Assembly (NCBI GenBank): GCA_037440225.1
Contig: JBBIUN010000006.1
Location: 37,126-101,125, forward strand
From: Gemmatimonadota bacterium
Lineage (GTDB): Bacteria; Gemmatimonadota; Gemmatimonadetes; Gemmatimonadales; GWC2-71-9
Length of the DNA: 64,000 nucleotides
Direction of reading: 5' to 3'
Both the position numbers and the translations under genes were made by a program. Shown here one piece after another: positions 25,560 to 62,512 of the stretch. Numbering within the stretch: the stretch's first letter is position 1; every line of letters begins with the position of its first letter. The notes beneath the pieces are model-generated. The model had not been told where the DNA came from. It saw only the letters and a program-made list of their open reading frames with translations, and searched no databases.

Positions 25560-25664
25560 CGCAACTCACCGAGCGGCGACCTCTTGAGGCGCGCTTGAAT
25601 ACCGCTTCACGCCTGATTTAGCGATGAACCAAGCCGGAGGCAGTAGATTGGCGCACGGTGCGGT

Positions 25665-28483: not shown

Positions 28484-28636
28484 CACGTTCCGGCACCGGG
28501 CGGAGGCCCGCGGCGGCTGCCGCGACAGGGACTCCACTCATCTCTCATTGCAGTGCAGCCCGGCGCGAGCCACCGGGCACCGCGCCCGCCGGCGCTTCCG
28601 ACGAAACCCGTGGCTGGGGCGTTTTGACCAATCCGA

Positions 28637-31437: not shown

Positions 31438-31464
31438 CCAGAGCGCAAGATGCGCCAGCCTGCG

Positions 31465-31492
31465 GTGAACCCTCAGTGAAGTTGCGGTGAAC
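31465..31492. promoter_or_regulatory. Three direct hexamers phased at 11 bp (GTGAAC-n5-GTGAAG-n5-GTGAAC), candidate response-regulator operator
   Basis: Read directly: hexamer starts at 31465, 31476 and 31487, and TGCGGTGAAC is repeated exactly 22 bp apart. The site is 28-55 nt upstream of the NHL start and 165-192 nt upstream of the response regulator start. Confidence 0.35.
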
Positions 31493-31656
31493 GAGCCTTG
31501 GCGCTCTCGAGGAACGGGCGGGGCTTGCCGCTGCTTCGATCCGGAAGCGCCTTCGGGTCTCTGGCGGATCCAAAGGGAGCGCCCTAGGCTTGAGAGAGCC
31601 AGGGGGACCTGGCGACTCGGGATCGTCAGGAACGCCCTCGGGGTAGCAAGGTCGCG

Positions 31657-43018: not shown

Positions 43019-45053
43019 GACCTTCCCAGCCGGTCCCCGTCAGCGTGACGGCGTAGCCGGGAAGGGCCCGCCGCAGCGACGCCTTGGTGGGAGCGGCCCC
43101 AGGCCACATCACGATGACCCCGCCCAGCACCAGGATCGCCCCGCCGAACCAGACCCACCAGACCAGCGGGTTGATGGTGAAGCGATAGACCGCTTCCTCT
43201 GTACCCGCCACGGAGCCGGCGAAGACGATGTAGAGGTCCTCGCGCAGGTCGCTGCGGATGGCGGCCTCGGTGGACGGGTTGAACTGGGGGCGGTTGAACG
43301 AATCCACGTACTGGCGTTTCTCGCTGCTCATCACGCCTAGCCGTTTGCCGTCCCGCTCGACCTCGACGCTGGCCGCGGTCACGAACCGGTTCAGCCGCTC
43401 GTACTGCGAGATCCCCAAATGGGTGAAGGTATATACGTGGCCGTACGGGGAGCGCATGGACGTGGATTCCCCCGGCTTCAGCGAGGCTTCCATTTCCCGC
43501 TTGAAGGCCAGGCCCGAGAAGGCCACGAAGTAGGTGACGATGCCCAAGTGCACCACGTAGCCGCCGTAGCGCCGGCGGTTCCGGGCCACCAGCCGGGCGA
43601 AGGCCAGGGGGTAGGCTTCCCCGTGCAGGCGATGCCGGGCGGACGTGCCCCGCCAGAACTCCTGCACAATGGTGGCCACCACGAAGGCCGCGAGCGAGGC
43701 CGCCACCCCGGCGTAGAAGTCGCTGTAGCGAATCAGCACCAGCACCAGCGCCGTGGCCAGCCCCATACTGACCGGGATGGCGAACTGCCGCTTGAGATTC
43801 TGCGGGCTCGCCTTGCGCCAGGCGATCAAGGGGCCCACGCCGGTCAGCGCCAGCAGGGCCAGGCCGATGGGGATGTTCACCTGATTGAAGAACGGCGGCC
43901 CGACCGTGACCTTGGTCCCCCGCAGCCACTCGGACAAAATGGGGAAGATGGTGCCCCAAAAAATGGAAAACGCCATCCCCACCAGCAGCAGGTTGTTAAA
44001 GTAGAAGCTCGCCTCCCGCGACAACGCGCTTTCCAACTGAGCCTCGCTCTTCAGTTCGGGCAGCCGGGTCCACAGCAGCCAGCCCAGGAAGATCGCGGTG
44101 GTCACCAGGAAGATCAGGAAGAAGTATCCCACGTTCGACTGGGCGAACGAGTGGACGCTGGAGATGATGCCGCTCCGGGTGATGAACGTCCCGAAGATGG
44201 ACAGCATGAACGACAGCGTGATCAGGGAGACGTTCCACTTCTTGAGCATGCCCCGCTTTTCCTGGATCATCACCGAGTGGAGGAACGCGGTCATGGTGAG
44301 CCAGGGGAGGAAGCTCGCGTTCTCTACCGGGTCCCAGGCCCAATATCCGCCCCAGCCGAGTTCCACGTACGCCCACCACATGCCCAGCGTGATGCCGATC
44401 GAGAGGAACGTCCAGGAGAGCAGGGTCCAGCGCCGGATGGCGTGCAACCAGCCGGTGTCCAGCCGCCGCGAGATGAGGGCCGCCACCGCGAAAGCGAACG
44501 GCACCGCGATGCTGATATAGCCGAGGTAGAGCATCGGCGGGTGGACCACCATGCCAGGATTCTGGAGCTGGGGATTGAGACCGTTGCCGTCCTCGGGCGT
44601 AAAGGGCAGCCGAGCGAAGGGGTTCGCGGCAAAGACCATCACCGCGACAAAGAACAGCGTCACCCCAGAGGTCACCGCCGCCACGTAGGGCATCAACGGA
44701 TCGTAGCGCCGGGGCGTGAGCCACTGCGCCGCCGCCGCAAAGATACTGAGCACGAAGGCCCAGAAGAGCAGGCTCCCCGCCTGGCCGCCGTAAAAGGCGG
44801 AGACCGTGTAGACCGCGGGCAGGTTGCGGCTGGTGTACTCGGCCACGTACGCCACGTTGAAGTCGCGGCGCAACAGCGCGGTGAGCAACGAGGCGGCCGC
44901 CACCGACAGCAGACCCAGCAAGGCATAGGTGGCCCGCCTGGCGCTCTGGATCAGTTCCGGCCGGCGGCGAATACCGCCCAGGACGCCGGTGGCCGTCCCC
45001 CACAAGGCCACCAGCAACGCCAGCCACAGAGCGATTTGGCCTAGGGTCGTCAC
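43011..45053 (-). CDS. ccmF: Cytochrome c heme lyase subunit CcmF
   Basis: 680 aa polytopic protein with the WGGYWAWDPVENASFLPWL tryptophan-rich (WWD-like) motif. Confidence 0.93.
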   Translation of the reverse strand: MTTLGQIALWLALLVALWGTATGVLGGIRRRPELIQSARRATYALLGLLSVAAASLLTALLRRDFNVAYVAEYTSRNLPAVYTVSAFYGGQAGSLLFWAFVLSIFAAAAQWLTPRRYDPLMPYVAAVTSGVTLFFVAVMVFAANPFARLPFTPEDGNGLNPQLQNPGMVVHPPMLYLGYISIAVPFAFAVAALISRRLDTGWLHAIRRWTLLSWTFLSIGITLGMWWAYVELGWGGYWAWDPVENASFLPWLTMTAFLHSVMIQEKRGMLKKWNVSLITLSFMLSIFGTFITRSGIISSVHSFAQSNVGYFFLIFLVTTAIFLGWLLWTRLPELKSEAQLESALSREASFYFNNLLLVGMAFSIFWGTIFPILSEWLRGTKVTVGPPFFNQVNIPIGLALLALTGVGPLIAWRKASPQNLKRQFAIPVSMGLATALVLVLIRYSDFYAGVAASLAAFVVATIVQEFWRGTSARHRLHGEAYPLAFARLVARNRRRYGGYVVHLGIVTYFVAFSGLAFKREMEASLKPGESTSMRSPYGHVYTFTHLGISQYERLNRFVTAASVEVERDGKRLGVMSSEKRQYVDSFNRPQFNPSTEAAIRSDLREDLYIVFAGSVAGTEEAVYRFTINPLVWWVWFGGAILVLGGVIVMWPGAAPTKASLRRALPGYAVTLTGTGWEGHE

Positions 45054-45056
45054 GAC

Positions 45057-45461
45057 TCAGGCCTTGGGCACCGACTCATACCGCGAGCCGCACTTGGCCA
45101 ACAGCGTCGTCGCCCGGAACGTGCCATCCGGCATCAGGCGCCCCTCGACCACCACGTCCACGTTGTCCGTGAAGGTGTCGGGCGCGAGCCCCCGGTATAC
45201 GACGGGATAGGTCTGCTGCCCGTCCGTCACCTGAAACGTGATGGTCTGGGAAGCCACGTCGCGCCGAATGCTGCCCGCCACCACTCGGGCGCCGAGTTTG
45301 ACCCCTACGTTGTAGAACGAGGGATCCGCCGCCACCCGGCCGGCCAGTTCGGTGGGCGTCAAGAAATACACCCCGGTGTCCTTGATACCCGAAGCCATGA
45401 GATAGCCCACCGTACCTACCACCAGGGCCGCGCCAATCAGGATGCGAGTGCGTGCGTTCAT
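45057..45461 (-). CDS. ccmE: Heme chaperone CcmE, Cys (CxxxY) variant
   Basis: 134 aa with an N-terminal anchor and an OB-fold body (...GVKLGARVVAGSIRRD...VVVEGRL...). The C-terminal motif LAKCGSRYES sits where classical CcmE has LAKHDE.Y. Confidence 0.88.
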   Translation of the reverse strand: MNARTRILIGAALVVGTVGYLMASGIKDTGVYFLTPTELAGRVAADPSFYNVGVKLGARVVAGSIRRDVASQTITFQVTDGQQTYPVVYRGLAPDTFTDNVDVVVEGRLMPDGTFRATTLLAKCGSRYESVPKA

Positions 45462-50088: not shown

Positions 50089-51363
50089 ATGTATGCACTT
50101 GCTGCGATCGGACTTACGGCCCTGGTATCCCTGGCCGCCCCCACGGAAGGAGCGGCCGGCGGCGTTCCCGCCTGGGTGCGGGAGTATGCCAATGCCTACG
50201 CCAGCCGGGTCTCGAGCGCCGCGAGCCACGTGGAAGCGGCGGCGCCCATCCCGGCGTGGGCCCAGAAGTACAACCTGGACTGCTCGGCCTGTCACTGGCC
50301 GGCCGCACCCCGGCTCAACGCCATGGGGATCCGCTTCCGGTGGGCAGGCTATCGCATGCCGGATGAGATCGGCCAGAAGGTGGACGTCAAGGACGTGGGC
50401 CACTACGTGGCGATGCGGGGCCGGATGCAGTACGTCTATGACAAGACCCAGGGCCAGCCGGCCACCAGCGATTTCAATTGGAACGATGCCACCTTGTTCT
50501 TCTCGGGACCGTTCGGGAAGCACTATAGCGCATTCTTCGAGCTGGAACGCGAGGCCGAGGATGCGCTGGGACTGGTGGCGCAGATCGGCGGCCTGTGGGG
50601 CAATCAGGAGTCCTACGGCGGGGTGCGGACCGGCCTGATGCACTGGCTGCTGCGGGACGGCGTGGCGGGCTTCGACCGGCCCACCGGCATCCGCACGCCT
50701 TTGCCGCTGGCCAACCCGCTGACTTCCACCATCCCGTTCCGGTTCTCGAAGGACCAGCTCGGCGCGGAGGGGTTTTTCGTGACCGGGCGCAACCGGGTTT
50801 CGCTCGAGGTGCTGAACGGGATCAACACCGCGGGTGCGGGTGACGAGAAGGATCCCGATACCAACCGCGACTTCGTGGTGACGAACCAGTTCCTGTTCGA
50901 TAACAAGGGTTCGGGGATCACCGCGGTGGGCTATTATGGCCAACTGGTGGGCCTGGCGCCGTCGGATCCCGGCCTCAACTCGCACTTCTGGCGGCTGGGC
51001 GCGAGTGCCAACTGGATCGTCAAGCAGCTGGAGTTGATGGGCGGCGTGGTGTATGGCAAGGACACCGACCTGCCCAGGTCGGTCTCCCCGGCGGATCGCA
51101 CCGGACTGGGGTATTGGGCCTATGGCGGCTACTCCATTCCCGTGCAGCAGTCCCTCTGGACGCTGTATGGTCGCTACGAGTTCCTGGACCCCAACACCGA
51201 TGTCGCCGGTGACGGCAGCAAGCGCTTCGTGTTCGGCACGGTGCTGCCCGTGAACCTACCGGAGTATCTGCGGCTGGCGGTCGAATATGCCCACGATCTC
51301 AAGCAGGCGGCCGCCGCGCCCAAGCGCAACGGCCTGACGGCGGAGGTGATGCTGAACTTCTGA
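50089..51363 (+). CDS. Cyc2-like fused monoheme cytochrome-porin (outer-membrane barrel with N-terminal CxxCH)
   Basis: 424 aa with a signal peptide and a single CSACH in the context PIPAWAQKYNLDCSACHW. About 340 aa of alternating-polarity strands follow, ending ...GLTAEVMLNF. The RBS GGGAGGAG lies upstream of the ATG. Confidence 0.65.
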   Translation: MYALAAIGLTALVSLAAPTEGAAGGVPAWVREYANAYASRVSSAASHVEAAAPIPAWAQKYNLDCSACHWPAAPRLNAMGIRFRWAGYRMPDEIGQKVDVKDVGHYVAMRGRMQYVYDKTQGQPATSDFNWNDATLFFSGPFGKHYSAFFELEREAEDALGLVAQIGGLWGNQESYGGVRTGLMHWLLRDGVAGFDRPTGIRTPLPLANPLTSTIPFRFSKDQLGAEGFFVTGRNRVSLEVLNGINTAGAGDEKDPDTNRDFVVTNQFLFDNKGSGITAVGYYGQLVGLAPSDPGLNSHFWRLGASANWIVKQLELMGGVVYGKDTDLPRSVSPADRTGLGYWAYGGYSIPVQQSLWTLYGRYEFLDPNTDVAGDGSKRFVFGTVLPVNLPEYLRLAVEYAHDLKQAAAAPKRNGLTAEVMLNF

Positions 51364-51480
51364 TCGCCGGGCGGCCGGGCGAACTCAGGCCACGATGGCC
51401 CCTGGGTCGAGGCCCCCGTGGGCCGGCCTGGGTTCGCCCCGGGCGATCCCCCATCCCGTGCAGCATCGGAGCGAAGCCAG

Positions 51481-52215
51481 ATGAAGGTTCCGGAACAGGT
51501 ACCCCGGCTGAGCGCGGTGTTCGCCGTGGCGATAGCCGGATTGGTGGCGGCCCGATCGCTTCTCCTGCCTGAGACCTTCGGCAAGCTCGGTCATTACCGC
51601 GCCGCGGCGATTGACTCCGTCGCGGCCCGCCCTACGAAGTACGCGGGCCAGCAAGCCTGCGCTGCTTGCCATGACGACGTGGCCACGCGCCGGGCGGCCG
51701 GCAATCATCGGGGGGTCTCCTGCGAAGTGTGCCACGGGCCGGAGCAGGCTCACGTGGATGCGCCGCTCGAGGTCAAGCCCCCGGCGCCGCGGGACCGCGG
51801 CTTCTGCCCGTTGTGCCATGCGTACAATCCCTCGCGGCCCACCGGCTTTCCCCAGATTGACCCGGTGGCGCACAACCCGCTCAAGCCGTGCATCACCTGC
51901 CACGATCCCCATGCGCCGGTCCCTCCGGTGGTGCCGGGCGAGTGCAGCGCCTGCCACGGGCAGATCGCCCGCCAGAAGGCGCTCTCGCACCATGCCAACC
52001 TGCCGTGCACCACGTGCCATCAGGCGCCGCAGCAGCATAAGGTGGCGCCGCGCACGGTGCGGCCGACCAAGCCCACGGAACGGAGTTTCTGCGGCCGGTG
52101 CCACGCCGAGGGAAGCAGCGGGCCTCCGGAAGCGCCGCGCATCAACCTGGCCGAGCACAATCCCCGATACCTGTGCTGGCAGTGCCACTACCCTCACTAC
52201 CCAGAGGCTCGATGA
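51481..52215 (+). CDS. Membrane-anchored octaheme c-type cytochrome
   Basis: Lies inside track ORF 51418..52215; ATG 51481 gives 244 aa. It has an N-terminal TM helix (LSAVFAVAIAGLVAARSLLL) and 8 CxxCH motifs: CAACH, CEVCH, CPLCH, CITCH, CSACH, CTTCH, CGRCH, CWQCH. Confidence 0.85.
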   Translation: MKVPEQVPRLSAVFAVAIAGLVAARSLLLPETFGKLGHYRAAAIDSVAARPTKYAGQQACAACHDDVATRRAAGNHRGVSCEVCHGPEQAHVDAPLEVKPPAPRDRGFCPLCHAYNPSRPTGFPQIDPVAHNPLKPCITCHDPHAPVPPVVPGECSACHGQIARQKALSHHANLPCTTCHQAPQQHKVAPRTVRPTKPTERSFCGRCHAEGSSGPPEAPRINLAEHNPRYLCWQCHYPHYPEAR

Positions 52216-53024
52216 TGGCGGACGAAGCACCGCAACCGGACGGCGCTTCACGCGGGCTGCCGGTGGTGGATCGGCGGCAGTTCGTCCAAGAAGCGCTCAA
52301 AGCCTGCGCGGCAGGGTGCCCGGTGATCTTGGCAGTGTTCGCGCTGCCGGCTGCGACGGCTCAGGAGCCGGGCCGCGGCGGCTACGACCCGAGCGAGCAC
52401 TGGTATGGGATGGGGATTGACATCCAGAAGTGCATCGGCTGCGGCCGCTGTGTGGCCGCCTGCAAGGCGGAAAACGAGGTGCCGCCGGATGCCCACCATT
52501 TCAATACCTGGGTGGAACGTTATGTGATCCACGATGACGGCGAGGTCACCGTGGACAGCCCCAACGGCGGTTTTGATGGGTTTCCTCCTCCCGAGAGCGA
52601 GGCGGGCATTCGGCGGACCTTCTTCGTGCCCAAGCTGTGCAACCACTGCGCCAACCCGCCGTGCGTGCAGGTTTGTCCCGTGGGTGCCACGTTCAGTACG
52701 CCCGACGGCGTGGTGCTGGTGGACGAAGCCTACTGTATCGGGTGCCGGTACTGCATTCAGGCCTGTCCCTACGGGGCGCGCTGGTTCCATCCTACCAAGC
52801 ACGTGGCCGCCAAGTGCACCTTCTGCTACCACCGGCTGGTCAAGGGGCTGTTGCCCGCGTGCGTGGAGGCCTGTCCCACAGGGGCGCGGGTCTTCGGCGA
52901 AGTGGCCCAGCGGGCCACCCCGCTGGCCCGCTTCACGCGGATGAACGACATCCAGGTGTTGAAGCCCCATCTCAACACCAAGCCCAAGGTGTACTACGCC
53001 AATCTCGACGTCGAGGTGAGGTAG
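52212..53024 (+). CDS. Tat-exported 4Fe-4S ferredoxin subunit, NrfC/PsrB/DmsB type
   Basis: ATG 52212 overlaps the octaheme stop (ATGA). It has the twin-arginine motif DRRQFV and cluster motifs CIGCGRCVAACKAEN, CNHCANPPCVQVCP, CIGCRYCIQACP and CTFCYHRL...CVEACP. Confidence 0.9.
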   Translation: MMADEAPQPDGASRGLPVVDRRQFVQEALKACAAGCPVILAVFALPAATAQEPGRGGYDPSEHWYGMGIDIQKCIGCGRCVAACKAENEVPPDAHHFNTWVERYVIHDDGEVTVDSPNGGFDGFPPPESEAGIRRTFFVPKLCNHCANPPCVQVCPVGATFSTPDGVVLVDEAYCIGCRYCIQACPYGARWFHPTKHVAAKCTFCYHRLVKGLLPACVEACPTGARVFGEVAQRATPLARFTRMNDIQVLKPHLNTKPKVYYANLDVEVR

Positions 53025-53025
53025 G

Positions 53026-54216
53026 GTGCAAGGCTATATCTACCCCAACGAGTACGAGCTGCAGTGGAGCCTCTTGATCGTGTTGTACCCGTACATCACC
53101 GGTCTGGTGGCTGGCGCGTTCATCCTGGCTTCGCTGGAGCGGGTCTTCAACGTGAAGGAGGTCCAGCCCACCTACCGGCTGGCCTTGCTGACTGCGCTGG
53201 CCTTCCTGCTGGTGGCCCCGCTGCCCCTGCAGGCCCACCTGGGCCACCCCGAGCGCTCCTACGAGATCTTCCTCACGCCCAACCGCAAATCGGCTATGGC
53301 GATGTTCGGGTTCGTGTACGCGTGGTACCTGGCCGTGGTGTTGTTGCTGGAGATTTGGTTCGAGTATCGCCAGGACATGATCACGTGGGCCAGCCGGGCT
53401 TCCGGCCCTCGCCGCTGGCTCTACCGGGTGCTGACCCTGGGCTCCCGAGATCTCTCTCCGGCAGCGCTCCAGTTCGACGACGCGGCCGGGCGCTGGATCA
53501 CCATCATCGGCATCCCGTCGGCGTTCCTGCTGCACGGGTACGTGGGGTTCATCTTCGGATCGGTCAAGGCGAACCCCTGGTGGAGCAGCGTGCTGATGCC
53601 GGTGGTCTTCCTGTTCTCGGCCATCGTGTCGGGCATCGCCCTGGTGCTGATCCTCTATCTGCTCACCAGCCTGTTTCGCTCCCGTCCGGTGGACATGCGC
53701 TGCCTGGACAAGCTGGCCAGCTTCCTGTTCTACGCCATGATCGTGGACGTCTCGCTGGAGATGCTGGACTTCCTGCACCGGCTCTACGAGTCGGAAGAGT
53801 CCATCACCATTCTCTCGCAGATGATCGAGAGCCGGCTGTTCATCAGCCTGATCGTCTTGCAGCTCGTGCTCGGCACGCTCGTTCCCCTAGGCTTCCTCGC
53901 GGTGTTCTCACCGGCGCTGCACCGGGGTCTCGCCCGGGGGTCGGACGAGCTTCGGCGGCTGGTCTATCTGGTTGCGGCCGTGCTGGTGGAAATCGGCATC
54001 TTCAGCATCCGCTGGAACGTGGTGATCGGAGGCCAGTTGTTCTCCAAGAGCCTGCGCGGGCTCACGGTGTACAAGGTGGAGCTGTTGGGCCTCGAGGGCT
54101 TGGCCATGACCATCGCGCTCTTGGCGCTGCCGTTCGTGATCCTCTGGGTCTTGGCCAAGGTGCTGCCGCCGTGGCCGGAGCTGCGCACGGCCCAAGCCGC
54201 CCCCGCGGAGGGGTAG
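53026..54216 (+). CDS. NrfD/PsrC-family polytopic quinone-interacting membrane subunit
   Basis: 396 aa with a GTG start 1 nt after the NrfC-like stop. The N-terminus ...WSLLIVLYPYITGLVAGAFILASL and about 8-10 TM helices are typical of the NrfD family. Confidence 0.85.
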   Translation: MQGYIYPNEYELQWSLLIVLYPYITGLVAGAFILASLERVFNVKEVQPTYRLALLTALAFLLVAPLPLQAHLGHPERSYEIFLTPNRKSAMAMFGFVYAWYLAVVLLLEIWFEYRQDMITWASRASGPRRWLYRVLTLGSRDLSPAALQFDDAAGRWITIIGIPSAFLLHGYVGFIFGSVKANPWWSSVLMPVVFLFSAIVSGIALVLILYLLTSLFRSRPVDMRCLDKLASFLFYAMIVDVSLEMLDFLHRLYESEESITILSQMIESRLFISLIVLQLVLGTLVPLGFLAVFSPALHRGLARGSDELRRLVYLVAAVLVEIGIFSIRWNVVIGGQLFSKSLRGLTVYKVELLGLEGLAMTIALLALPFVILWVLAKVLPPWPELRTAQAAPAEG

Positions 54217-54240: not shown

Positions 54241-54582
54241 CTAGGGCTTGGCCAAGCTCCGGATGTACTTGGCGATCGCCACGGCCTGTTCTTTGGTGAG
54301 CTTGCCTTTGAAGCCCTTCATCCCCGGGGCAATGCCGTTCTCGATGACGGCCACCGTGGAGTCCTCAGAAAGACCCTTGAACGTCGCCGGATCGGCGAAC
54401 GACTTGAGGTTCTTGAACATCTTGACCATTCCCGCCGACGGCACCCCTGCCTGGCCGTGGCAGGTCGCGCAGTTCGTCTTGTAGAGCGCCTGGCCGTCCG
54501 GTGCCTGAGCCGCGGCGCTGCGTGCGCTGAGCACGAGGGCCAGGCCCAGACCGAACCCGATAGCGAGCATCTGGCGATTCAC
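54241..54582 (-). CDS. Class I monoheme cytochrome c (c6/c553-like)
   Basis: 113 aa with a signal peptide. GQALYKTNCATCHGQ is the heme motif, and the distal Met region is ...IENGIAPGMKGF.... Confidence 0.85.
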   Translation of the reverse strand: MNRQMLAIGFGLGLALVLSARSAAAQAPDGQALYKTNCATCHGQAGVPSAGMVKMFKNLKSFADPATFKGLSEDSTVAVIENGIAPGMKGFKGKLTKEQAVAIAKYIRSLAKP

Positions 54583-54718: not shown

Positions 54719-55162
54719 TCACCGGCGGGTGGGCCGCAGCTCCTCGTGACAATTGAAGCACTGGAACACCACTTGCACAAACTGATAGTAGCTGGCGTGG
54801 AGATCGCCGTCCCGGGCGAACTTGGCCAAGAGGGCGGCCCGCCGCTGAAATTCGGCCTCGTTGATCGCCCCGGCCTGCGCCCCGCCCGGCACCACGCTCC
54901 AGTTGGCGCGCGCCGCGATCTCGACCAACTCGTCGGCGGCGCGCTGGACCGCGTTGAGATCCCCCTTGGCCAGGCCCCGGAGGATGATCTCCGCGCGGCT
55001 GACCTTCTCAAGCATCAGCCGGCGGAGCCTGGCCCTGGCCGAGTCCTGCTGTTGCGCGGCGGCCGGCGCGCCTAGGGGCGCGGCCGGCGCCCGAGGTCGA
55101 ACGGCAGCCGTCGCCACGGCCACCGCCGCGGCGAGGCAGATCACCTTAAGCTCGGTTCGCAT
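54719..55162 (-). CDS. Class II-like helical monoheme cytochrome (C-terminal CFNCH)
   Basis: 147 aa with a signal peptide and a helical body. The single heme motif is 10 residues from the C-terminus (FQCFNCHEELR), as in the cytochrome c'/c556 layout. Confidence 0.55.
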   Translation of the reverse strand: MRTELKVICLAAAVAVATAAVRPRAPAAPLGAPAAAQQQDSARARLRRLMLEKVSRAEIILRGLAKGDLNAVQRAADELVEIAARANWSVVPGGAQAGAINEAEFQRRAALLAKFARDGDLHASYYQFVQVVFQCFNCHEELRPTRR

Positions 55163-55226: not shown

Positions 55227-55628
55227 CTAGCCGGCCTTGGGCTGGTGGCACAGCAGGCACTGCTTGTCGGTTCGCCCCTGGTGATCGGCCGGCACATCGG
55301 GCACCGCCGGCATCACCCCGACCTTGTGACACACCAGGCACGCGGTACGACCCTGCAACGCGTGCTTGATCTCGGGCGAGGCTTTGGTCTGCACGGCCCC
55401 GTCCTTGGCATGACACCAGAGGCAGGTCTCGTCGCCCCGGTCCTTATGGGTCGCCGGAATGTCTTTCGCATCTTCCGCAGCGCCCACCGCGTGGCAGGTA
55501 AGGCACTTCTCCTTTCCCGCCGCCTCATGGGCCATGACCGGCGGCTTGGCCGCCTGCCCTCGCGCCACCGCGGGTAGCCCCACCAGGGCCGCGATGCCTA
55601 TCAATCTGCCGAGAGTGCGGTTGGTCAT
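55227..55628 (-). CDS. Tetraheme c-type cytochrome, probable c subunit of the Rieske/cytochrome b complex
   Basis: Lies inside track ORF 55227..55823. ATG 55628 overlaps the cytochrome b stop (ATGA) and gives 133 aa with a signal peptide and CLTCH, CLWCH, CLVCH, CLLCH. Confidence 0.85.
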   Translation of the reverse strand: MTNRTLGRLIGIAALVGLPAVARGQAAKPPVMAHEAAGKEKCLTCHAVGAAEDAKDIPATHKDRGDETCLWCHAKDGAVQTKASPEIKHALQGRTACLVCHKVGVMPAVPDVPADHQGRTDKQCLLCHQPKAG

Positions 55629-56980
55629 GCGTTCCTCCCTTTGCTGCCGGATGAACCCGTGTACTCCCCTTTGCCGCCCGGTGCCCCCGCGTACTCGGCG
55701 CCCGCTGCCGCGAGCCCCGGATGCCCCTGGCGCGCTCCGGCGCGCCGCAGCCGCCATCGCGCCGCGCCGTAGGCCGCCCAGCCCGCCGCCAACGGGACCA
55801 CCGCGACCGCGGCGCGCAACCACGCCTTGGAGATCCCCAATTCATCATCGTAGGCCGCCAGGGTGAACACGCCGATCAGCGCCAGGAACCCCACACCCCA
55901 GGCGAGCCGCGCAGGATGCCAAGTGGGCGGCTCCAAGTAGTCCAGCTTAGCTCGGTTGGTGCGGTCCAGCCAGGGCAGCAGCGCGAGCCCCAAGATCACC
56001 AGGGCCGGCAGGAGAATCCCGCCGATCGCCTCCGAGCCGATGGTCGCGCCGAAGAGACGCACCTCCATCCAGCCCGGAACCAGTCGCAAGGCCCCATAAA
56101 TCCACATCAGGTACCAATCGGGCTTGACCGTGGGCGTCTCCGGGGCCGGCGGCCCGTAGAACTCCACCGGGTGGACCGGGAAGACCGTCCCCAGGAGGAC
56201 CAAAGCCCCACCCAGCACCAGCGCCAGCACGGCCATGATGACGGCCTGCTGGGGCCACAGGGGAATACCGATCAAACGCCCGCCGGTGCTGTACGCCCGC
56301 GCTGCCGGCGGCTCGGTGTGCTTCTGTTTGACCAAGATCACCAAGTGCAGCCCGATGCCCGCGAACAGCAACAGCGGCAGGAGCATGATGTGGTAGCCGT
56401 AGAACCTGGGGATGAGCGAGGAGCCGGGGAACTTGCCGGCAAAAACCAGGTCGGCCAGATACCCGCCGACCCAGGGTACCGACTTGGCGATGTTGTAGCC
56501 GATACCCGTGGCCGTCACCGAAAACTGGTCATAGGGGAGCAGGTATCCCACGAAGGCGGCAAAGATCGCGAGCCCCAAAAGGCCCAGCCCCACGATCCAG
56601 TTGATTTCGCGCGGCTTCTTGTACGCGCCGGTGAAGAACACCCGGAGCAGGTGCAGCACCAGGGCAGCCACCATGACGTGCGCCGCCCAGTGGTGAATCT
56701 GCCGGATCAGATAGGCTGCCGGAATCCGATCCAAGAGCATCACGCTGCCGTACGCTGCCGGGACCCGCTGGCCCTCGACTTCCACTTCCGCGGTGGACGG
56801 CTCGTAGAGGAACGCCAAGTAGATCCCGGTGAGCACCAGCACCAGGAAGGCAAACAGGGCGATTTCTCCCAAGAAGAAGGTGGAGTGAATGGGGAAGGCC
56901 TTCCTGAGGTATTTGCGGTAGGCCCGGTCCAGGTCCAGGCGCTCGTTCCACCAGCGCCCCCAGGCGGACTCGCGGCTCAT
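55625..56980 (-). CDS. Cytochrome b (fused b6 plus subunit IV-like) of a Rieske/cytochrome b complex
   Basis: Lies inside track ORF 55625..57247; ATG 56980 gives 451 aa. It shows ...IRQIHHWAAHVMVAALVLHLLRVFFTGAYKKPREINW...FYGYHIMLLPLLL...HLVILV..., the bis-heme His pattern of cytochrome b. Confidence 0.92.
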   Translation of the reverse strand: MSRESAWGRWWNERLDLDRAYRKYLRKAFPIHSTFFLGEIALFAFLVLVLTGIYLAFLYEPSTAEVEVEGQRVPAAYGSVMLLDRIPAAYLIRQIHHWAAHVMVAALVLHLLRVFFTGAYKKPREINWIVGLGLLGLAIFAAFVGYLLPYDQFSVTATGIGYNIAKSVPWVGGYLADLVFAGKFPGSSLIPRFYGYHIMLLPLLLFAGIGLHLVILVKQKHTEPPAARAYSTGGRLIGIPLWPQQAVIMAVLALVLGGALVLLGTVFPVHPVEFYGPPAPETPTVKPDWYLMWIYGALRLVPGWMEVRLFGATIGSEAIGGILLPALVILGLALLPWLDRTNRAKLDYLEPPTWHPARLAWGVGFLALIGVFTLAAYDDELGISKAWLRAAVAVVPLAAGWAAYGAARWRLRRAGARQGHPGLAAAGAEYAGAPGGKGEYTGSSGSKGRNA

Positions 56981-57552
56981 GCGGCGATCACTCCAATGGG
57001 CTCCTGGAAGCTTCCCGCGGCCACCACCTCGCCCGCGGCGTTGATCCGCACGGCGAGCTGCGGCAAGGGCCGCGGGGGCGGGCCGGCGACCACGGCTGCC
57101 CCGTGGCGCGGGTCGAACACCCCGGCATGACAGGGACAGTGCACGTGGGAAAACGGTGCCGCCGCCATGCCTTCGGGAGAAAACCGCACGGTACAGGCGA
57201 GGTGGGTGCAGATGGCGCTGTAGGCCGCGAACCCTTCGGCCGTCCAATCGAGGCGCGTGGGGGGCTCGTAGGCGTTAGGCTCCAGCCGGATCAGCATGAT
57301 GAGGTTGTCGTGGTTGCTCTCCTTCCCCTGCGGAAAGGCTAGCACGCCCTGGCCCACCGGCACGTTCTCCCGGGTGATCGCTTTCCCGGCGTTGGGGCCC
57401 ATGGCGAACACCAGGCGGTCGCCTTCGCTCACCGCAGCCTCGCCGGTGGACCGGCGCACCGCGCGGATAGAGGCGATGACCGAGCCCATGGCCGCGAGGG
57501 CGCCGAGGATGCTGGCGCCCAGCACCGACGTGGCAAACTTTCTCCGATCCAC
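56977..57552 (-). CDS. Rieske [2Fe-2S] iron-sulfur protein
   Basis: 191 aa with a Tat-like N-terminus MDRRKFATSVLG and cluster boxes CTHLACTV and CPCHAGVF. Confidence 0.92.
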   Translation of the reverse strand: MDRRKFATSVLGASILGALAAMGSVIASIRAVRRSTGEAAVSEGDRLVFAMGPNAGKAITRENVPVGQGVLAFPQGKESNHDNLIMLIRLEPNAYEPPTRLDWTAEGFAAYSAICTHLACTVRFSPEGMAAAPFSHVHCPCHAGVFDPRHGAAVVAGPPPRPLPQLAVRINAAGEVVAAGSFQEPIGVIAA

Positions 57553-57577: not shown

Positions 57578-58567
57578 TTACCAAGGCACCTCTTCGTCTC
57601 GATCCTGTTCGATGACCTCGGCGGTCATGAAATACCGGCGGTACAGCGAGACCGCTACAGCCAAGGTCCACATCCACCACGTGCCGGCAAGCCCCAGCAG
57701 GGCCACCGGCCCGGTGCCCAGCACCACCTGCCGGATGAACCACCCGGCGCCGAGCAGGGCGGCCAGCGCAAACACGGCGAGCGCGACCGTCGCCCCCAGA
57801 CCGGCGGCCGGCTCGGTCCGCTCGGGCCGAGGCTCCACGCCTTCGAGCCACACCGAGACCAACCCGATCACGCCGTACACCGCGAGGACCAAGACCCACG
57901 CCAGGAGCCCGATTTGGTACTCCGCCAGGTGCTCGGGTATGGCCCGCCGGCCCGCGGCGCTGGCGGCAAGAAAGTCGATCTGCGCGGTGGCGCGGTGGCT
58001 CTCGTGGTACGTCATGAAATCGTCCGCATCCGAGAAGGCCATCAGCACGGGCATGCTCCCGCGCACGAAGGGCCGATCATAGCGGTCGCCGGTGTCCAGC
58101 TTGCGGCGGAACTCCACGATCGTGCCGCCGGAGGACTCGCCCGCCCGGGCCTCGATCAAGTCGGCCCGTCCTGCCAGCTCCGCATCCGCTACGTGGCCGG
58201 CGGCGTCGTTGGCGAAGTTGTCCTGCACGTGCGAGCCGCCCGAGTCCACGTAGCCGATCACGATGTCGAAGCCCTGCATGATGGGTCCTTCGCCACCCCA
58301 TCCCACGGCCACCCACCCCTTGCCCGGCGCCTCCACCGCCATCCGGATTTCGTCGCCCTGGACCGACCAGCGAATGGTCATCCCGATGTCCTGGGCCCGG
58401 TACTCGTGCTGGTACTCGCCCGAACCCACTTGGCCGTCCACCGCCCAGGCACCCGTGCCGGGCGCGGGGCCCACGCGCAACCAGCCGAGGTCCAGCGCCA
58501 GCGCGGCCATGCCGAGCAGCGCGGCGACCAGCGCCGCCAGCGGCAGCCCGATGCTATTGCGCACCAT
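57578..58567 (-). CDS. DOMON-domain membrane protein
   Basis: 329 aa with a signal/anchor. ...MTIRWSVQGDEIRMAVEAPGKGWVAVGWGGEGPIMQGFDIVIGYVD...TIVEFRRKLDTGDRYDRPF...VLMAFSD matches the DOMON/DoH beta-sandwich pattern. About 4 TM helices lie at the C-terminus. Confidence 0.7.
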   Translation of the reverse strand: MVRNSIGLPLAALVAALLGMAALALDLGWLRVGPAPGTGAWAVDGQVGSGEYQHEYRAQDIGMTIRWSVQGDEIRMAVEAPGKGWVAVGWGGEGPIMQGFDIVIGYVDSGGSHVQDNFANDAAGHVADAELAGRADLIEARAGESSGGTIVEFRRKLDTGDRYDRPFVRGSMPVLMAFSDADDFMTYHESHRATAQIDFLAASAAGRRAIPEHLAEYQIGLLAWVLVLAVYGVIGLVSVWLEGVEPRPERTEPAAGLGATVALAVFALAALLGAGWFIRQVVLGTGPVALLGLAGTWWMWTLAVAVSLYRRYFMTAEVIEQDRDEEVPW

Positions 58568-58582
58568 ACCGCGTCTTTCTCC

Positions 58583-59350
58583 TCAGCGCCGCCGAAAGCC
58601 CGCCAGGATCGAATCCGCCCGGCGGCCGTGGGCCCCTGCGGCGAGCAACATCTGTTCCACCAGGTTCAGGTCGAACGAATGCCAGCCCTGGCGCGCCCGC
58701 TGCATGGTCTGGCGGGCCTGCTGCAACGGAGCCCGAGCCGCATCGCGCAGCCGCTGCTCCGGGGTGCGGTCCAGCAGCGCCTGGACGACGCCGATGGAGA
58801 AATCCGTCTGCTGGAGTAGCACCAAGAGATACCGCGCTTCCACCGGCGGTGTGGTCGGCAACCGCCGTTCGGGGTTGTGACAGGCCGTACAGGTCGCCTC
58901 CATCTCGCTCGGCGAGAGCACCTGGATCGCCATGGACCCATGGCAGGTGACGCAGTTGGGCCCCCGGCCCGTGGTGACCAGTTGGGTGTAATGCCGACTG
59001 CCGGAGAAAAACGCCAGCTCCTGCTGGTGACAGGAGCCGCAGGTTGCCGGAATCCGGGTGTAGTAGACCGTGCTCCGGGATTCGCGCGAGGAGTAAACGC
59101 CCCGGTGGGCCGCTGTTCGGTCGGTGGCGGTGGGGTCGCCGCCGTGACACTTGTCGCAGGTGGCACCCGCGCGCCCGTGCGGCGAGGACCGCCAGTCCCG
59201 GAACGAGTGCCCCGCGGCGGTCGTCGCCGGTAGCCGCTCGTGGCAGGAAACACACGGATTCGGGGCCGCAACCCGGCCGCCTCCTCGAGCGGCCTGAGCC
59301 AGCGACGGAAGAGCCACGAACAGCATGACTACCAGCACGTCCCTCGCCAT
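58583..59350 (-). CDS. Pentaheme c-type cytochrome with C-terminal helical domain (paralog a)
   Basis: Lies inside track ORF 58583..59722. ATG 59350 (MARDVLVVMLFVALPSLAQA) is preceded by GAGGCGAGG; ATG 59389 is an alternative. Heme motifs: CVSCH, CDKCH, CGSCH, CVTCH, CTACH. A heme-free Q/R/L-rich tail of about 90 aa follows. Confidence 0.85.
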   Translation of the reverse strand: MARDVLVVMLFVALPSLAQAARGGGRVAAPNPCVSCHERLPATTAAGHSFRDWRSSPHGRAGATCDKCHGGDPTATDRTAAHRGVYSSRESRSTVYYTRIPATCGSCHQQELAFFSGSRHYTQLVTTGRGPNCVTCHGSMAIQVLSPSEMEATCTACHNPERRLPTTPPVEARYLLVLLQQTDFSIGVVQALLDRTPEQRLRDAARAPLQQARQTMQRARQGWHSFDLNLVEQMLLAAGAHGRRADSILAGFRRR

Positions 59351-59421
59351 AGCACGCCTCGCCTCGTTTGGCCGTTCATCACGATGCATCTCGTCACCTT
59401 CATCACGCGTCGAGAGCCTCC

Positions 59422-60183
59422 TTAGCGCCCAGATCTCGCCGCCAGCGCCGAATCGGCCCGCCGGATGGCGGCCGCGGCATGGCGCAGCGCGTCGTCGAGC
59501 AGCGCCGCGTCGAACGCGTGCCAGCCCTGGCGCGCGCGGGCCAAGGCCTCGCGCGCCTGGCCCAAGGCCTGCGCCGCGACGTTCCGGCGCCTCTGATCCG
59601 GTCCCTGCGCGGCCAGAGGATCGAGCCTCCGGAGGCTGGAGTCGGTCTGCCGCAGCAGGGCCAATCGCTCCCGGGCCGCCCCCACGGCCTCGGCCCCAGC
59701 CACCCCGCCCGAGCGGTGGCACCCACCGCAGGCACTATCCAGCTCGCTTGCCGCGAGCACCCGAATCGCCATGGAGCCATGGCAGGTCACACAGGTGGGA
59801 CCGCGCCGCGTGGTAACGATCTGGCTGAAGTGCCGGCTCTCCATGAAAAACCCCAGTTCCTGCTGGTGGCAGGCCCCGCAGGTGGCCGGGATCCTGGTGT
59901 AGTTGACCAGGCTCCGGTACTCCCGCGACGGGAAGACGCCCTGGTGGGCCTGCGCCACCTCGGCCGCCGTGGTGTCCCCGCCATGGCACCGATCGCAGGT
60001 GACCACGCCCCCATGAGCCGAGGCCCGCCACTCGGCAAAGGAATGCGCCGCGGCTGCCCGTGCCGGCAACTGCTGGTGGCAGGTGACACACGGATTCTGG
60101 CCGGCCCCTTGGATCAGCCAGTCCGCGTCCTTCCCTCCCGGCAGGAGCGCTGCCGCCGCCAGCACAGCACCGAGCACGGTCAC
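59422..60183 (-). CDS. Pentaheme c-type cytochrome with C-terminal helical domain (paralog b)
   Basis: Lies inside track ORF 59422..60597. GTG 60183 is preceded by AGGGGG at 9 nt. Heme motifs: CVTCH, CDRCH, CGACH, CVTCH, CGGCH. It is collinear with paralog a (NPCV.CH..LPA..AA.HSF..WR.S.HG...TCD.CHGGD...YTRIPATCG.CHQQEL.FF..SRH...VTT.RGP.CVTCHGSMAI.VL). Confidence 0.85.
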   Translation of the reverse strand: MTVLGAVLAAAALLPGGKDADWLIQGAGQNPCVTCHQQLPARAAAAHSFAEWRASAHGGVVTCDRCHGGDTTAAEVAQAHQGVFPSREYRSLVNYTRIPATCGACHQQELGFFMESRHFSQIVTTRRGPTCVTCHGSMAIRVLAASELDSACGGCHRSGGVAGAEAVGAARERLALLRQTDSSLRRLDPLAAQGPDQRRRNVAAQALGQAREALARARQGWHAFDAALLDDALRHAAAAIRRADSALAARSGR

Positions 60184-60196
60184 CTGATTCAGCCCC

Positions 60197-60967
60197 CTAC
60201 TCCTCGCCCGGCACGGTCGCGTGGCAAGCCAGGCACATTTCCGCGTTCCGCTGCTTGAGCCGCGCGGCGTCGAAGCCGGGTCCGTGCGGGTTGAAGCGAC
60301 GGCTGCCTTGGGCCGAGTGGCACTGGAGGCAGTCCCGCTCGGCGTGGCAGGCCACACAGCTTTCCAGGCTCTGCCGCGCCGCCTGGCCGTGACCCGCGAG
60401 GAAGAACTGTTTGGCGTCGTGGTAGCCGCCGCGGAGCGTCCTCCCGGACGAGACCAAGCCGGCCGTCTTGTGGCAGGTGGCGCAGAACCCCGTGGTGCTG
60501 TGGCATTCGCTGCACGAGGTTTCGCGCGCGTAAGCCGCCGCCGGGTGCCGCGCGAGGAACTGGGCTGGGTGGAACCCCGGTGTGCCGGACCCCGCATCCG
60601 GCCGGTGGCAGCTCAGGCAATCGGACCGGACGTGGCAGGCAGCGCAGTTCTGCGGGGCGGCCGCGGCTTGGGCGGCGTGGCGGTCGCGAAAACCGCCCTG
60701 GTGCGAGGCGGGCGGGCGGCGCTTGATCTGCGCCAGACCGGGATTGTCCGGTGTCGCCGGCGGAAGCGCATTGGCCACTTCCGGGTTGCCGATGTGGCAC
60801 TCCCGGCAACTGTCCTGCGTGTGGCAGGTGGCGCAGGCTGCGGTGGACTTCCGAGCCTCGCTGCCGTGCCGCGTGAGGTAGTCGGGCTCGTGCTGAGCCA
60901 GGGCCCCCGAGCTTCCGCCCAGGGCCGCGCCGATCACGGCTGCCACTACGGCCACCGTCGCTTTCAT
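60197..60967 (-). CDS. Nonaheme c-type cytochrome (cytochrome c3-type repeats)
   Basis: Lies inside track ORF 60197..61078. ATG 60967 is preceded by GGAGG and gives 256 aa with a signal peptide. 9 CxxCH motifs include three CxxCH-x4-CxxCH pairs: CATCH/CRECH, CAACH/CLSCH, CSECH, CATCH, CVACH/CLQCH, CLACH. Confidence 0.88.
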   Translation of the reverse strand: MKATVAVVAAVIGAALGGSSGALAQHEPDYLTRHGSEARKSTAACATCHTQDSCRECHIGNPEVANALPPATPDNPGLAQIKRRPPASHQGGFRDRHAAQAAAAPQNCAACHVRSDCLSCHRPDAGSGTPGFHPAQFLARHPAAAYARETSCSECHSTTGFCATCHKTAGLVSSGRTLRGGYHDAKQFFLAGHGQAARQSLESCVACHAERDCLQCHSAQGSRRFNPHGPGFDAARLKQRNAEMCLACHATVPGEE

Positions 60968-62472
60968 TGTGGCCTCCTGCCTTCCGGCATGCGAAGGATG
61001 ACGGGGTGCAGGCGGCGGGTGTCGCTGCCCGAGGCGAGTTCGAGAGAGACTCCTACGTCGAGCCGGAGCTGGTTCCACGACAGCGCCCCGGCGTCATCGC
61101 GCCGGCGATCCTCGCTCACGCCCCGGGCGTCGCCGATCAGCCGCAGGCCGCGGGCGGCTTCGTAATCGAGCCGCAGGCCGTAGCTCCAGAGGCGCACGTC
61201 ATCGAACCGGTATTCCAGCGGGCGCGCGAGGCGGGCCCCGTCCACCGTGACCAGCAGGCCGTTCGTGGGGCGGTAGGTCGCTGCCGCTTCGATGGTCTGC
61301 GAGGAGGCGCCGGGCCCCAAGCCGCGCTCATAGGTGGCATCGAAGGACCAATTGGCAAAGCGCACCACGCTGGCGCTCACCGCGCTGCGCCAGCCGCCGC
61401 GCTCGCCGGGCGCCAGCGGGTTCGCCGCGCCGGCCTCGTCGAACCGGAACACCTCGCCCCGGGCCTTGAGGTCGAGACCCGGCAGGGCGCTTACTGCCAG
61501 CGAGCCCATGGCGGCGCTGTAGGCTGCGGGACTGAACGCGCCCCAAATGGTCCACAGATCGAAGTACGGCCGGTAGCGCCGCCCTTGGGCGGCGAGCTTC
61601 ACCTTGCCGTTCGCCGCCAGCACGTTGAGGGTGATGTCGGCCTTGCCCCATTCGCCCTTGGCGATGTCGTAGTCCCCGCCGCCCACCAGGCTGACCTCGG
61701 GCGAGGCCGCAAGCGACCAGTCGGCGCTCACGCGTTCGGAGACGGTGGCCTCGGCTCCGGAGCGGTCCTCTCGCTGGTAGAGCATCTGTCCCCTGAATTC
61801 GGGCAGGAACCACCGGATGCCGCCGGCCGCCACGAGCTGCCGCCGGTTGGGGAGGGAATCGCCCAGAGGATTCAAATCGAGGCTGGTGACGGGCAGGGGG
61901 GAGTTGCGGGCCAGCCCGTAGCCGCCGTAGCCGAACAGCGCGAGGGCTCGACCCAGGGGCCGCAGTTCCAGGCTGCCGCCGTCGAAGCCCACCCACCCCA
62001 ACCGACTGGCTTCATGGAGGCGGCCGGCCGTAAGCGAGACGGGGCCCCGCGTGTAGCCGGCGTACGCTTCGAGCAGTTGCAGACCGGGCTCGCTGGTGGG
62101 CCAATCCGTGCCGGCGAGGTCGGTGTTGGCCCGGGCCACGAGGTTGACCTTGAGGCCCGGCACGCCCAGCCCCCAGACGGTGGCGCTGGCCAGGGTGGAG
62201 ATCGGGGTGGCGGTGGTCGGCGGACCGGGCCGGAAGAAGGTGCAATACGTGGCCGCGGTGGCGCAGGAGACGGCGTAGCCGTCCGCGGTCCTGAGCCCGC
62301 CCGTGGGTGCGGGGGTCACGGCGGCGCGGAGCACGCTGTCGAACGCCAGCCCGCGAAAGCGCACGGCTTGCAGTCGGGTATCGAGACGCACGCGGTAGCT
62401 TTGCGCCGCTAGCGGCGCGGGCCCGACCACGCTCAAGGCCCAGAGTGCCGCGAGCCACTTGCGTCGTGTCAT
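60964..62472 (-). CDS. Predicted outer-membrane beta-barrel protein (502 aa)
   Basis: ATG 62472 is preceded by GAGGAGG. Signal peptide MTRRKWLAALWALSVVGPAPLAAQ. It has many amphipathic strands rich in G/Y/R/D/W. Its stop overlaps the nonaheme start (ATGA). Confidence 0.6.
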   Translation of the reverse strand: MTRRKWLAALWALSVVGPAPLAAQSYRVRLDTRLQAVRFRGLAFDSVLRAAVTPAPTGGLRTADGYAVSCATAATYCTFFRPGPPTTATPISTLASATVWGLGVPGLKVNLVARANTDLAGTDWPTSEPGLQLLEAYAGYTRGPVSLTAGRLHEASRLGWVGFDGGSLELRPLGRALALFGYGGYGLARNSPLPVTSLDLNPLGDSLPNRRQLVAAGGIRWFLPEFRGQMLYQREDRSGAEATVSERVSADWSLAASPEVSLVGGGDYDIAKGEWGKADITLNVLAANGKVKLAAQGRRYRPYFDLWTIWGAFSPAAYSAAMGSLAVSALPGLDLKARGEVFRFDEAGAANPLAPGERGGWRSAVSASVVRFANWSFDATYERGLGPGASSQTIEAAATYRPTNGLLVTVDGARLARPLEYRFDDVRLWSYGLRLDYEAARGLRLIGDARGVSEDRRRDDAGALSWNQLRLDVGVSLELASGSDTRRLHPVILRMPEGRRPQ

Positions 62473-62512
62473 GTCGCCTCCTCGCATCCCGCCGCCGGGG
62501 CGGGGCTCATGG

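Follow-up and report, generated by a model that had tools for sequence, protein, structure and literature searches.

A 64,000-nucleotide (nt) stretch of a Gemmatimonadota genome (GenBank assembly GCA_037440225.1, contig JBBIUN010000006.1, positions 37,126 to 101,125 of the forward strand; hereafter the window, with a GC content of ~67–71%) carries four co-oriented genes, of which the first encodes a putative fused cytochrome-porin of the Cyc2 superfamily and the other three an octaheme cytochrome, an NrfC-type ferredoxin and an NrfD-type membrane subunit (together, the trio). This four-gene block is real, repeatedly conserved and clade-restricted, and brings together, in a respiratory island, two modules whose distributions are independent of each other. 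The best joint explanation of the data is that a Cyc2-superfamily porin has been placed upstream of the trio within this island and most likely operates inward, and we put the probability of this reading at about 0.55. What the parts are and how they fold, how far they are conserved and how the synteny is patterned are matters of observation. The locus is not a chance arrangement, since C65, C68 and H69 of gene 1 are invariant in 59/59 homologs and genes 2–4 are found together in 46/46 related loci with room for them.

An open reading frame (ORF) listing places the genes where an initial annotation, made by a model from the DNA letters, had put them (aa, amino acids; TM, transmembrane):

50089..51363, + strand: gene 1, putative divergent Cyc2-superfamily fused monoheme cytochrome-porin, 424 aa
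51364..51480, + strand: gene 1–gene 2 spacer, 117 nt, GC-rich, with a long hairpin lacking a U-tract and a GGAG Shine-Dalgarno sequence before the gene 2 ATG
51481..52215, + strand: gene 2, octaheme c-type cytochrome anchored in the membrane by one N-terminal TM segment, 244 aa, 8 CXXCH
52212..53024, + strand: gene 3, four-cluster ferredoxin (NrfC/PsrB/TtrB/DsrO type) exported through Tat, 270 aa
53026..54216, + strand: gene 4, NrfD/PsrC-family quinone-interacting membrane subunit, 396 aa, ~9-10 TM segments

The layout described earlier was borne out almost throughout. The translation of gene 1 has a hydrophobic N-terminus and ends in ...EVMLNF, the gap of 117 nt between its stop and the gene 2 ATG (51481) is exact, and gene 2 encodes eight CXXCH motifs behind a single N-terminal TM segment. 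The gene 3 ATG (52212) overlaps the gene 2 stop as ATGA, its product has DRRQFVQ as a Tat motif as well as four Cys-cluster motifs, and gene 4, an NrfD-family gene, starts 1 nt after the gene 3 stop. The CSACH of gene 1 is indeed present in a single copy; its position is residues 65–69 and not ~75.

The heme motif and barrel of gene 1

Gene 1 has no match in Pfam or NCBIfam, and its >300 homologs retrieved by a word-indexed search are all labelled hypothetical and lack a Pfam domain; those that are named belong to metagenome-assembled genomes (MAGs) of Gemmatimonadales and Acidobacteriota. In an alignment of 59 family members (A1), the invariance of C65, C68 and H69 extends to P55, P71, R75, L76 and N77 and to many residues of the barrel, and the C-terminal Phe is nearly invariant.

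By the published description, a Cyc2 protein has a signal peptide, a single CXXCH and a porin of 16 strands, is 365 aa or longer, and carries the motif AXPXFAR[Q/K][T/Y] before the CXXCH and PXL four residues after it (PMC8406198). Residues 1–19 of gene 1 are hydrophobic (Kyte–Doolittle score 1.64), are modelled as a helix without a charged n-region and represent a candidate signal peptide. As in Cyc2, there is exactly one CXXCH, and the 424 aa, with a 16-strand barrel domain, agree with Cyc2 in length and architecture. The heme region reads PAWAQKY-NLD-CSACH-WPAA-PRL. Its motif departs from the strict PXFAR[Q/K][T/Y] at two positions (F to W and R to Q; the clade consensus is PAWAR[K/R]Y), stands in the same register, three residues ahead of the first Cys, as in a canonical PAFARQT protein encoded beside a family member in another locus (L003; numbers with the prefix L denote comparison loci), and is followed by PXL four residues after the CXXCH, as PRL in gene 1 and likewise in all 67 distinct pattern-matched homologs. 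A pattern scan of the heme region covering every fetched locus gave the arrangement P-x-[W/F]-A-R-[K/R/Q]-[Y/T], 3 residues, CxxCH, 4 residues, PxL in 67/67 distinct sequences, with Trp in the motif of 73/78 matching sequences and the canonical Phe in 5/78.

An AlphaFold2 model of gene 1 built on A1 (pLDDT 86.9, pTM 0.81) consists of a small helical region with the heme motif followed by exactly 16 β-strands, which falls within the 16–18 strands anticipated by the initial annotation. A Foldseek search of the Protein Data Bank (PDB) with this model returned the 16-strand porins BpsOmp38, PorB and Omp32, and OprO (4rjw) at rank 14; OprO and OprP are the templates reported for Cyc2 by its authors (PMC8406198).

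Homology to canonical proteins was examined with a second, motif-positive family (A2), for which the 482-aa canonical-motif protein of L003 served as bait. Its members come from Sideroxyarcus, a Gallionellaceae genus, and from Nitrosomonadales and Rhodocyclales, with the consensus AVPAFARQTGKACSxCHFQHYPALN. The A1 and A2 profiles align with hhalign at 98.1% probability (E 1e-13) over 220 columns that run from the heme domain into the barrel. BLASTP of gene 1 against the Sideroxyarcus protein aligns the heme region alone (E 1e-7), and distant Cyc2 pairs have been reported by He et al. to align likewise in the heme region only (PMC5566968). A HMMER profile search of 1.84 billion cluster representatives gave 75 matches at E ≤ 1e-30, 402 at ≤ 1e-10 and 1,997 at ≤ 1e-3. 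This exhaustive search grades continuously into canonical PxFARKY proteins: on direct inspection, distant full-length matches carry the canonical MPNFARKY…CxxCH…P[RK]LN, with PxL at +3 or +4. A search of PDB sequences with the A1 profile produced noise only (E above 1). Considering (i) the barrel model, (ii) the heme motif, (iii) the A1/A2 alignment and (iv) the reach of the profile search into canonical proteins, the Cyc2-like character proposed for gene 1 is upheld: as judged from sequence and model, it is a Cyc2-superfamily fused cytochrome-porin of a compact Trp-variant subclade, with predicted Fe(II) oxidase activity and a predicted outer-membrane location.

Scanned at one genome per species, the gene 1 clade is overwhelmingly Gemmatimonadota, with outliers in Nitrospirota and Acidobacteriota. 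The Nitrospirota outliers include a Candidatus Manganitrophaceae MAG and a Nitrospira MAG, and the Trp-variant IPAWxRKY...CxxCH...PRLN is found in Nitrospirota MAG loci L071, L075, L076, L080, L082, L083 and L085. The Cyc2 homologs discussed for the Mn(II)-oxidising Manganitrophaceae may thus belong to the Trp-variant clade; Cyc2 homologs in those Nitrospirota groups have already been mentioned in the literature (PMC9040806), and in marine Gemmatimonadota homologs of Cyc2 and DFE_461–465 are widely annotated (PMC11316326). The filter used for building the published Cyc2 tree required PXFAR[Q/K][T/Y] (PMC8406198). Such a filter would drop the large Gemmatimonadota/Nitrospirota Trp clade, so that motif-screened surveys may undercount Cyc2-like genes.

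A few clade members (L003, L021) retain PAFARKY. In L003 (3953-10732, GCA_040960765.1) two Cyc2-type genes stand in tandem, a PAFARKY member (393 aa) and then the fully canonical 482-aa protein (PAFARQT…CSSCH…PAL), with genes for a Fer4_11 protein and an NrfD–cytochrome c fusion of 1,001 aa ahead of them; the same genome has the four-gene block on another contig (L006). A further porin-family locus, with a Rieske gene upstream, lies in a MAG labelled Bacillota (L023, JBLMWC010000076.1), where an outer-membrane barrel points to a diderm lineage or to mis-binning.

The octaheme–NrfC–NrfD trio and its neighbours

Matches in Pfam, NCBIfam and PDB sequences bear out the reading of genes 2–4 as an anchored octaheme cytochrome with an NrfC/NrfD quinone module. 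Gene 2 matches the Pfam families Cytochrome_C7/Paired_CXXCH, and all eight of its CXXCH motifs are invariant in 45 aligned homologs. Its family numbers 2,208 homologs, and every named one is a Gemmatimonadota "cytochrome c3 family protein", some of them on contigs of 4.1 and 4.7 Mb. Against PDB sequences gene 2 gave short heme-motif matches only (octaheme nitrite reductase, NrfH) and none to ActA, and a fold search with its AlphaFold2 model (pLDDT 74.9) returned nothing significant, the best hit having an E of 0.06 over 51 columns and ActA again being absent. Consequently, the octaheme subunit has no assignable solved relative.

Gene 3 (Pfam Fer4_11, 3e-27) has Thermus PsrB as its best solved relative (2vpw_B, 7e-50) and aligns with ActB of alternative complex III (ACIII) over the C-terminal Fe-S part only (residues 682-828 of 949 in 6btm_B, 1e-20). 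Gene 4 (Pfam NrfD PF03916, 9e-35) has five His and one Cys, lacks heme ligand motifs, is 66-92% identical across related loci and gave no PDB sequence match. Among NCBIfam families the two resemble TtrB, DsrO, ArrB, NrfC, NrfD and DsrP, always below the cutoff (TtrB 201.7 vs 416, DsrO 179.7 vs 200, NrfC 144.9 vs 377.6, NrfD 42.6 vs 347.6, DsrP 41.9 vs 350), with QrcC and QrcD far under theirs. The "dimeric redox module" of Duarte et al. pairs a cofactor-free NrfD/PsrC-family protein of 8–10 TM helices with a protein that holds up to four Fe-S clusters (PMC6303296). The products of genes 3 and 4 correspond to this definition.

We compared two sets of loci, one centred on the octaheme gene (80 metagenome loci, 55–84% identity) and one on the porin (80 species-level loci). 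Genes 3 and 4 follow the octaheme gene, adjacent to each other, in all 46 octaheme-centred loci that have room for them, and Rieske/cytochrome b genes are present in half (17/34) of those longer than 7 kb. Taken with the sequence analysis above, this pattern identifies the octaheme–NrfC–NrfD trio as a widespread, unnamed module of Gemmatimonadota respiration, standard in the phylum and self-contained. In the porin-centred set, 43/68 species loci have a monoheme cytochrome c gene no more than 0.8 kb downstream of the porin, and 33/55 have a Rieske gene upstream of it.

The survey recovered the four-gene block. The order porin then octaheme is found on five other contigs from the window's own porin clade, namely L169 and L170 (92% porin identity), L006 (74%), L171 (71%, with a 0-nt gap at which stop and start abut) and L009 (68%), and the porin–octaheme spacer in relatives ranges from 0 to ~177 nt. 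L172 (72%) has the common layout, in which the porin is followed by a convergent monoheme c gene, and has no octaheme gene. Other quinone modules occur next to porins as well: a different NrfC-type gene is near the porin in L016, L021, L024 and L086, and a non-orthologous NrfC with an NrfD–cytochrome c fusion (1,001 aa) stands beside it in L003 and apparently in L021 and L024. As the porins thus adjoin a bc type, an NrfC with NrfD–cytochrome c fusion, or the octaheme–NrfCD trio, a link to quinone-pool complexes is a theme of the family, and this recurrence in gene content argues that the electrons of the porin may be meant to meet the quinone pool.

Direction of electron flow and competing explanations

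We infer the physical and functional coupling of porin and trio, the substrate and the direction of flow, and propose the following mode of action. Genes 2–4 encode a periplasm-facing quinone-pool oxidoreductase, in which an octaheme wire anchored in the inner membrane is combined with an NrfC-type ferredoxin of four clusters and an NrfD-type quinone subunit without cofactors; directly upstream of them, on the same strand, the porin gene has been placed in this lineage. A soluble extracellular reductant, Fe(II) or possibly Mn(II), would be oxidised at the barrel-embedded heme, from which electrons would pass to periplasmic or anchored c-type hemes and onward to a terminal oxidase, or else through an NrfCD-type or bc-type module to the quinone pool, the latter at the expense of proton-motive force. 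In the inward case, the NrfCD module would reduce quinone and consume proton-motive force in doing so; Qrc reduces menaquinone electrogenically, in a reaction coupled to the membrane potential (PMC6303296).

The direction of flow cannot be read from the sequence, as the initial annotation had also stated. By analogy, we favour inward flow by roughly two to one, because all Cyc2 proteins tested biochemically (those of A. ferrooxidans and PV-1, and Leptospirillum Cyt572) oxidise Fe(II) (PMC8406198, PMC7029218) and because the published pathway leads from Cyc2 to Cyc1 and then to a terminal oxidase, or to bc1/ACIII for reverse electron transport (PMC5566968, PMC7029218). Coupling is favoured by the shared strand, by the ATGA overlap and 1-nt gap inside the trio and by the gene order kept on the five contigs at 68-92% porin identity. 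That the porin and the octaheme–NrfCD module constitute one operon and one physical pathway, a four-protein trans-envelope wire to the quinone pool with no soluble carrier, we consider doubtful. If true, it would provide a phylum not known for metal lithotrophy with a minimal route that oxidises Fe(II)/Mn(II) or is active on electrodes, and would be the first genomic hard link to an inner-membrane complex that receives Cyc2 electrons.

Several observations weigh against a partnership of porin and trio or against the role proposed for the porin. A porin homolog is found in 0/44 octaheme-centred loci that have at least 1.4 kb of upstream sequence, the trio is near only 3/80 porin-centred loci (directly in L009, ~1.1 kb away in L010 and as a divergent version after Rieske/cytochrome b in L062), and most species have the porin without the trio. 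In a complete 4.09-Mb genome (L173) the trio stands beside cytochrome b, Rieske and two cytochrome genes and there is no porin, and L174 is the island of L007 minus the porin. Since the trio occurs without the porin in 44/44 loci and in the complete genome, it has a porin-independent job, and the earlier description of the two as "hard-wired" was overstated. With a strong hairpin within the 117-nt spacer, co-transcription of gene 1 with genes 2–4 is no more than putative; the hairpin's energy of -66.4 kcal/mol is not significant relative to shuffled sequences (z -1.75, 14/200 shuffles), and a promoter and terminator scan of this 67% GC DNA yielded nothing useful, with no terminator-like site in the spacer. 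Furthermore, PAWAQKY of gene 1 is the sole R to Q case in a family in which this R is nearly invariant, the system is known from MAGs only and its host is uncultured, and many Cyc2 homologs belong to organisms not known to oxidise iron (PMC5566968).

The same counts speak for the view that porin and trio are neighbours and not partners, which we regard as a real but lesser possibility. The trio would then be a general Gemmatimonadota quinol:cytochrome c oxidoreductase, the porin would work through a soluble monoheme c to a bc complex or oxidase, and their adjacency would be a by-product of the insertion of a porin gene into a cytochrome-rich island. The constant neighbours of the porin, monoheme c and Rieske, fit this view, as do the layout of the 72% relative L172 and the pair L174 and L007, in which the porin is absent from or present in an otherwise identical island. 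However, order and strand are kept on five contigs across a wide range of identity, stop and start abut in L171, and the recurrence of two other kinds of quinone module by porin-family genes points to selection for proximity rather than to accident. An outward conduit, in which NrfCD would oxidise quinol and deliver electrons through the octaheme and the barrel heme to a soluble acceptor (chelated Fe(III), Mn(III) or humics) in the manner of NetBCD-PdsA-MtrCAB, is improbable. It would suit the known Gemmatimonadota, which are heterotrophs and do not obviously require reverse electron flow. NetBCD, which is NrfBCD-like and is encoded together with mtrCAB, functions as a quinol dehydrogenase (PMC8805035), and a survey of marine Gemmatimonadota was unable to separate iron reduction from oxidation for its Cyc2 and DFE matches (PMC11316326). 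On the other hand, no member of the Cyc2 family has been shown to work outward, the single heme in a narrow 16-strand pore is predicted to restrict Cyc2 to soluble species (Keffer et al., PMC8406198), and multiheme clusters elsewhere in the window seem better suited to outward transfer.

A reading of gene 1 as a common porin for diffusion or for anions, and no cytochrome, is highly improbable. Although the gene belongs to no Pfam or NCBIfam family, has general and phosphate porins as its best structural matches and deviates from the strict Cyc2 motif, the Cys and His residues of the CXXCH and five residues flanking it are invariant in 59/59 sequences, profile–profile homology begins in the heme domain, and cytochrome partners and putative genes for cytochrome c maturation are found next to it. 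An incidental CXXCH was rejected on account of this invariance.

The preferred reading, an inward-operating Cyc2-type porin set ahead of the trio, is built from parts already known in kind, namely the Cyc2 superfamily and cytochrome–NrfCD modules, and the idea of a Cyc2 wired to a bc or an ACIII-like complex has been put forward before. The statement that this is not a described system is therefore half right: the route from Cyc2 through Cyc1 to ACIII/bc1 has been published (PMC5566968, PMC7029218), and NetBCD beside mtrCAB is a precedent (PMC8805035). New are (i) a Trp-variant clade that fails the published motif screen, (ii) the octaheme–NrfC–NrfD trio, here recognised as a widespread unnamed module of Gemmatimonadota, and (iii) the clade-specific placing of a Cyc2-type gene directly ahead of it. 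In iron oxidizers, the step from Cyc2 to the inner membrane (bc1, ACIII or other) is still argued from co-occurrence and expression data, and a Cyc2-type gene directly before an NrfCD-type module offers a concrete pair for testing it.

The respiratory island and comparison with known systems

Downstream of gene 4, the window carries the following genes on the opposite strand:

54241..54582, - strand: convergent monoheme class-I cytochrome c, 113 aa (Pfam Cytochrome_CBB3 2e-13)
54719..55162, - strand: 147-aa protein with a C-terminal CFNCH, one CXXCH; weak cytochrome c' match (Pfam Cytochrom_C_2 1.5e-4, below cutoff)
55227..55628, - strand: tetraheme cytochrome c, 4 CXXCH (Pfam Paired_CXXCH_1)
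55625..56980, - strand: cytochrome b of a bc-type complex (Pfam Cytochrom_B_N_2 1e-51, Cytochrome_B 3e-30)
56977..57552, - strand: Rieske [2Fe-2S] protein (Pfam Rieske 8e-7)

Between gene 4 and the Rieske–cytochrome b–tetraheme c operon, which is located 1.4–3.3 kb downstream, are the monoheme c and the c′-like protein. Translational coupling of the operon is indicated by ATGA overlaps that join the Rieske stop to the cytochrome b start (56977-56980) and the cytochrome b stop to the tetraheme c start (55625-55628). In most related loci a cytochrome c domain is fused to the C-terminus of cytochrome b; here it is missing. Rieske/cytochrome b is the hub beside which the porin family and the trio both usually sit, and the 113-aa monoheme c, the most constant neighbour of the porin family, is a candidate periplasmic shuttle.

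Other parts of the window also encode cytochromes and related proteins. On the minus strand (57578-63919), a conserved block of five parts encodes a DOMON protein with 4 TM segments, cytochromes with 9 hemes (one) and 5 hemes (two paralogs), a fusion of a 5-heme domain with cytochrome b561, and a 507-aa protein that lacks a Pfam match, heme motif or TM segment and is a candidate outer-membrane barrel. This block, which recurs wholly or partly in L007/L010, L103, L124, L125 and L174 and partly in L003/L021, looks like a porin–multiheme conduit with its own b-type quinone subunit. A second cytochrome cluster (22725-33644), possibly the "Locus A" of the initial annotation, encodes multiheme cytochromes (284, 301 and 803 aa), a pair of NHL/beta-propeller proteins of 396 and 321 aa, a 697-aa ORF without a Pfam match, and then an OmpR-type response regulator and a histidine kinase; its mix of multiheme and NHL-propeller proteins recalls the DFE-type clusters flagged by FeGenie in Gemmatimonadota (PMC11316326). 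Minus-strand ORFs of 680 and 134 aa at 43011-45461 resemble CcmF and CcmE, as judged from their translations, and a TPR protein (16249-17172) has a CcmH/CycH TPR domain match of 47.4 bits (E 2.5e-12) that was graded sub-threshold (cutoff printed as 42...).

Gene 1, with its candidate signal peptide, shares with the characterised Cyc2 proteins (A. ferrooxidans Cyc2, Leptospirillum Cyt572 and Mariprofundus Cyc2 PV-1; PMC8406198) a single N-terminal CXXCH with PxL at +4 and the heme motif in the same register, a length of ~420 aa, a 16-strand barrel with a C-terminal aromatic residue, profile-level homology, and nearby genes for periplasmic cytochrome c and a complex-III-type enzyme. It differs in that its clade mostly has Trp for the signature Phe (PAWAR[K/R]Y), the window copy carrying R to Q as well and falling outside the PXFAR[Q/K][T/Y] screen, in a ~25-residue N-terminal extension ahead of the motif, in that its activity is a predicted one, and in coming from a phylum, Gemmatimonadota, not known for iron lithotrophy.

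ACIII (ActABCDEF; PDB 6btm, 6f0k, 6lod), a proposed acceptor of Cyc2-derived electrons in iron oxidizers, resembles the trio in having a TM-anchored multiheme cytochrome together with NrfC-like four-cluster and NrfD-like quinone subunits, facing the periplasm. Unlike ACIII, the trio has eight hemes instead of five in a cytochrome with no detectable ActA similarity, a gene 3 product of 270 aa (vs ~950-1040 aa) without the ActB1 molybdopterin-like domain, one NrfD-like subunit where ACIII has two (ActC, ActF), and no ActD or ActE; between gene 4 and the convergent cytochrome c there are no further plus-strand genes, and a single NrfD-family gene is present. We rejected the term "minimal ACIII" used earlier, since three defining features (the ActB1 domain, a second NrfD-like subunit along with ActD and ActE, and a pentaheme ActA) are absent.

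The NrfBCD/NetBCD system beside MtrCAB in Aeromonas, a modular and mobile gene cluster (PMC8805035), likewise places a module of cytochrome, NrfC and NrfD near an outer-membrane heme conduit. That conduit is a 26-strand porin with decaheme cytochromes and outward flow, whereas in the window it would be a monoheme 16-strand fused porin, with an octaheme as the cytochrome and NCBIfam NrfC/NrfD scores far below cutoff. With respect to Qrc, DsrJOP and Nhc/Hmc-type modules, the trio is set apart by the want of an equivalog match (the DsrO score coming closest to its cutoff, at 179.7 bits vs 200), by another cytochrome subunit and by another host metabolism, and it shares with them a dimeric NrfC/NrfD redox module joined to a periplasmic multiheme partner (PMC6303296).

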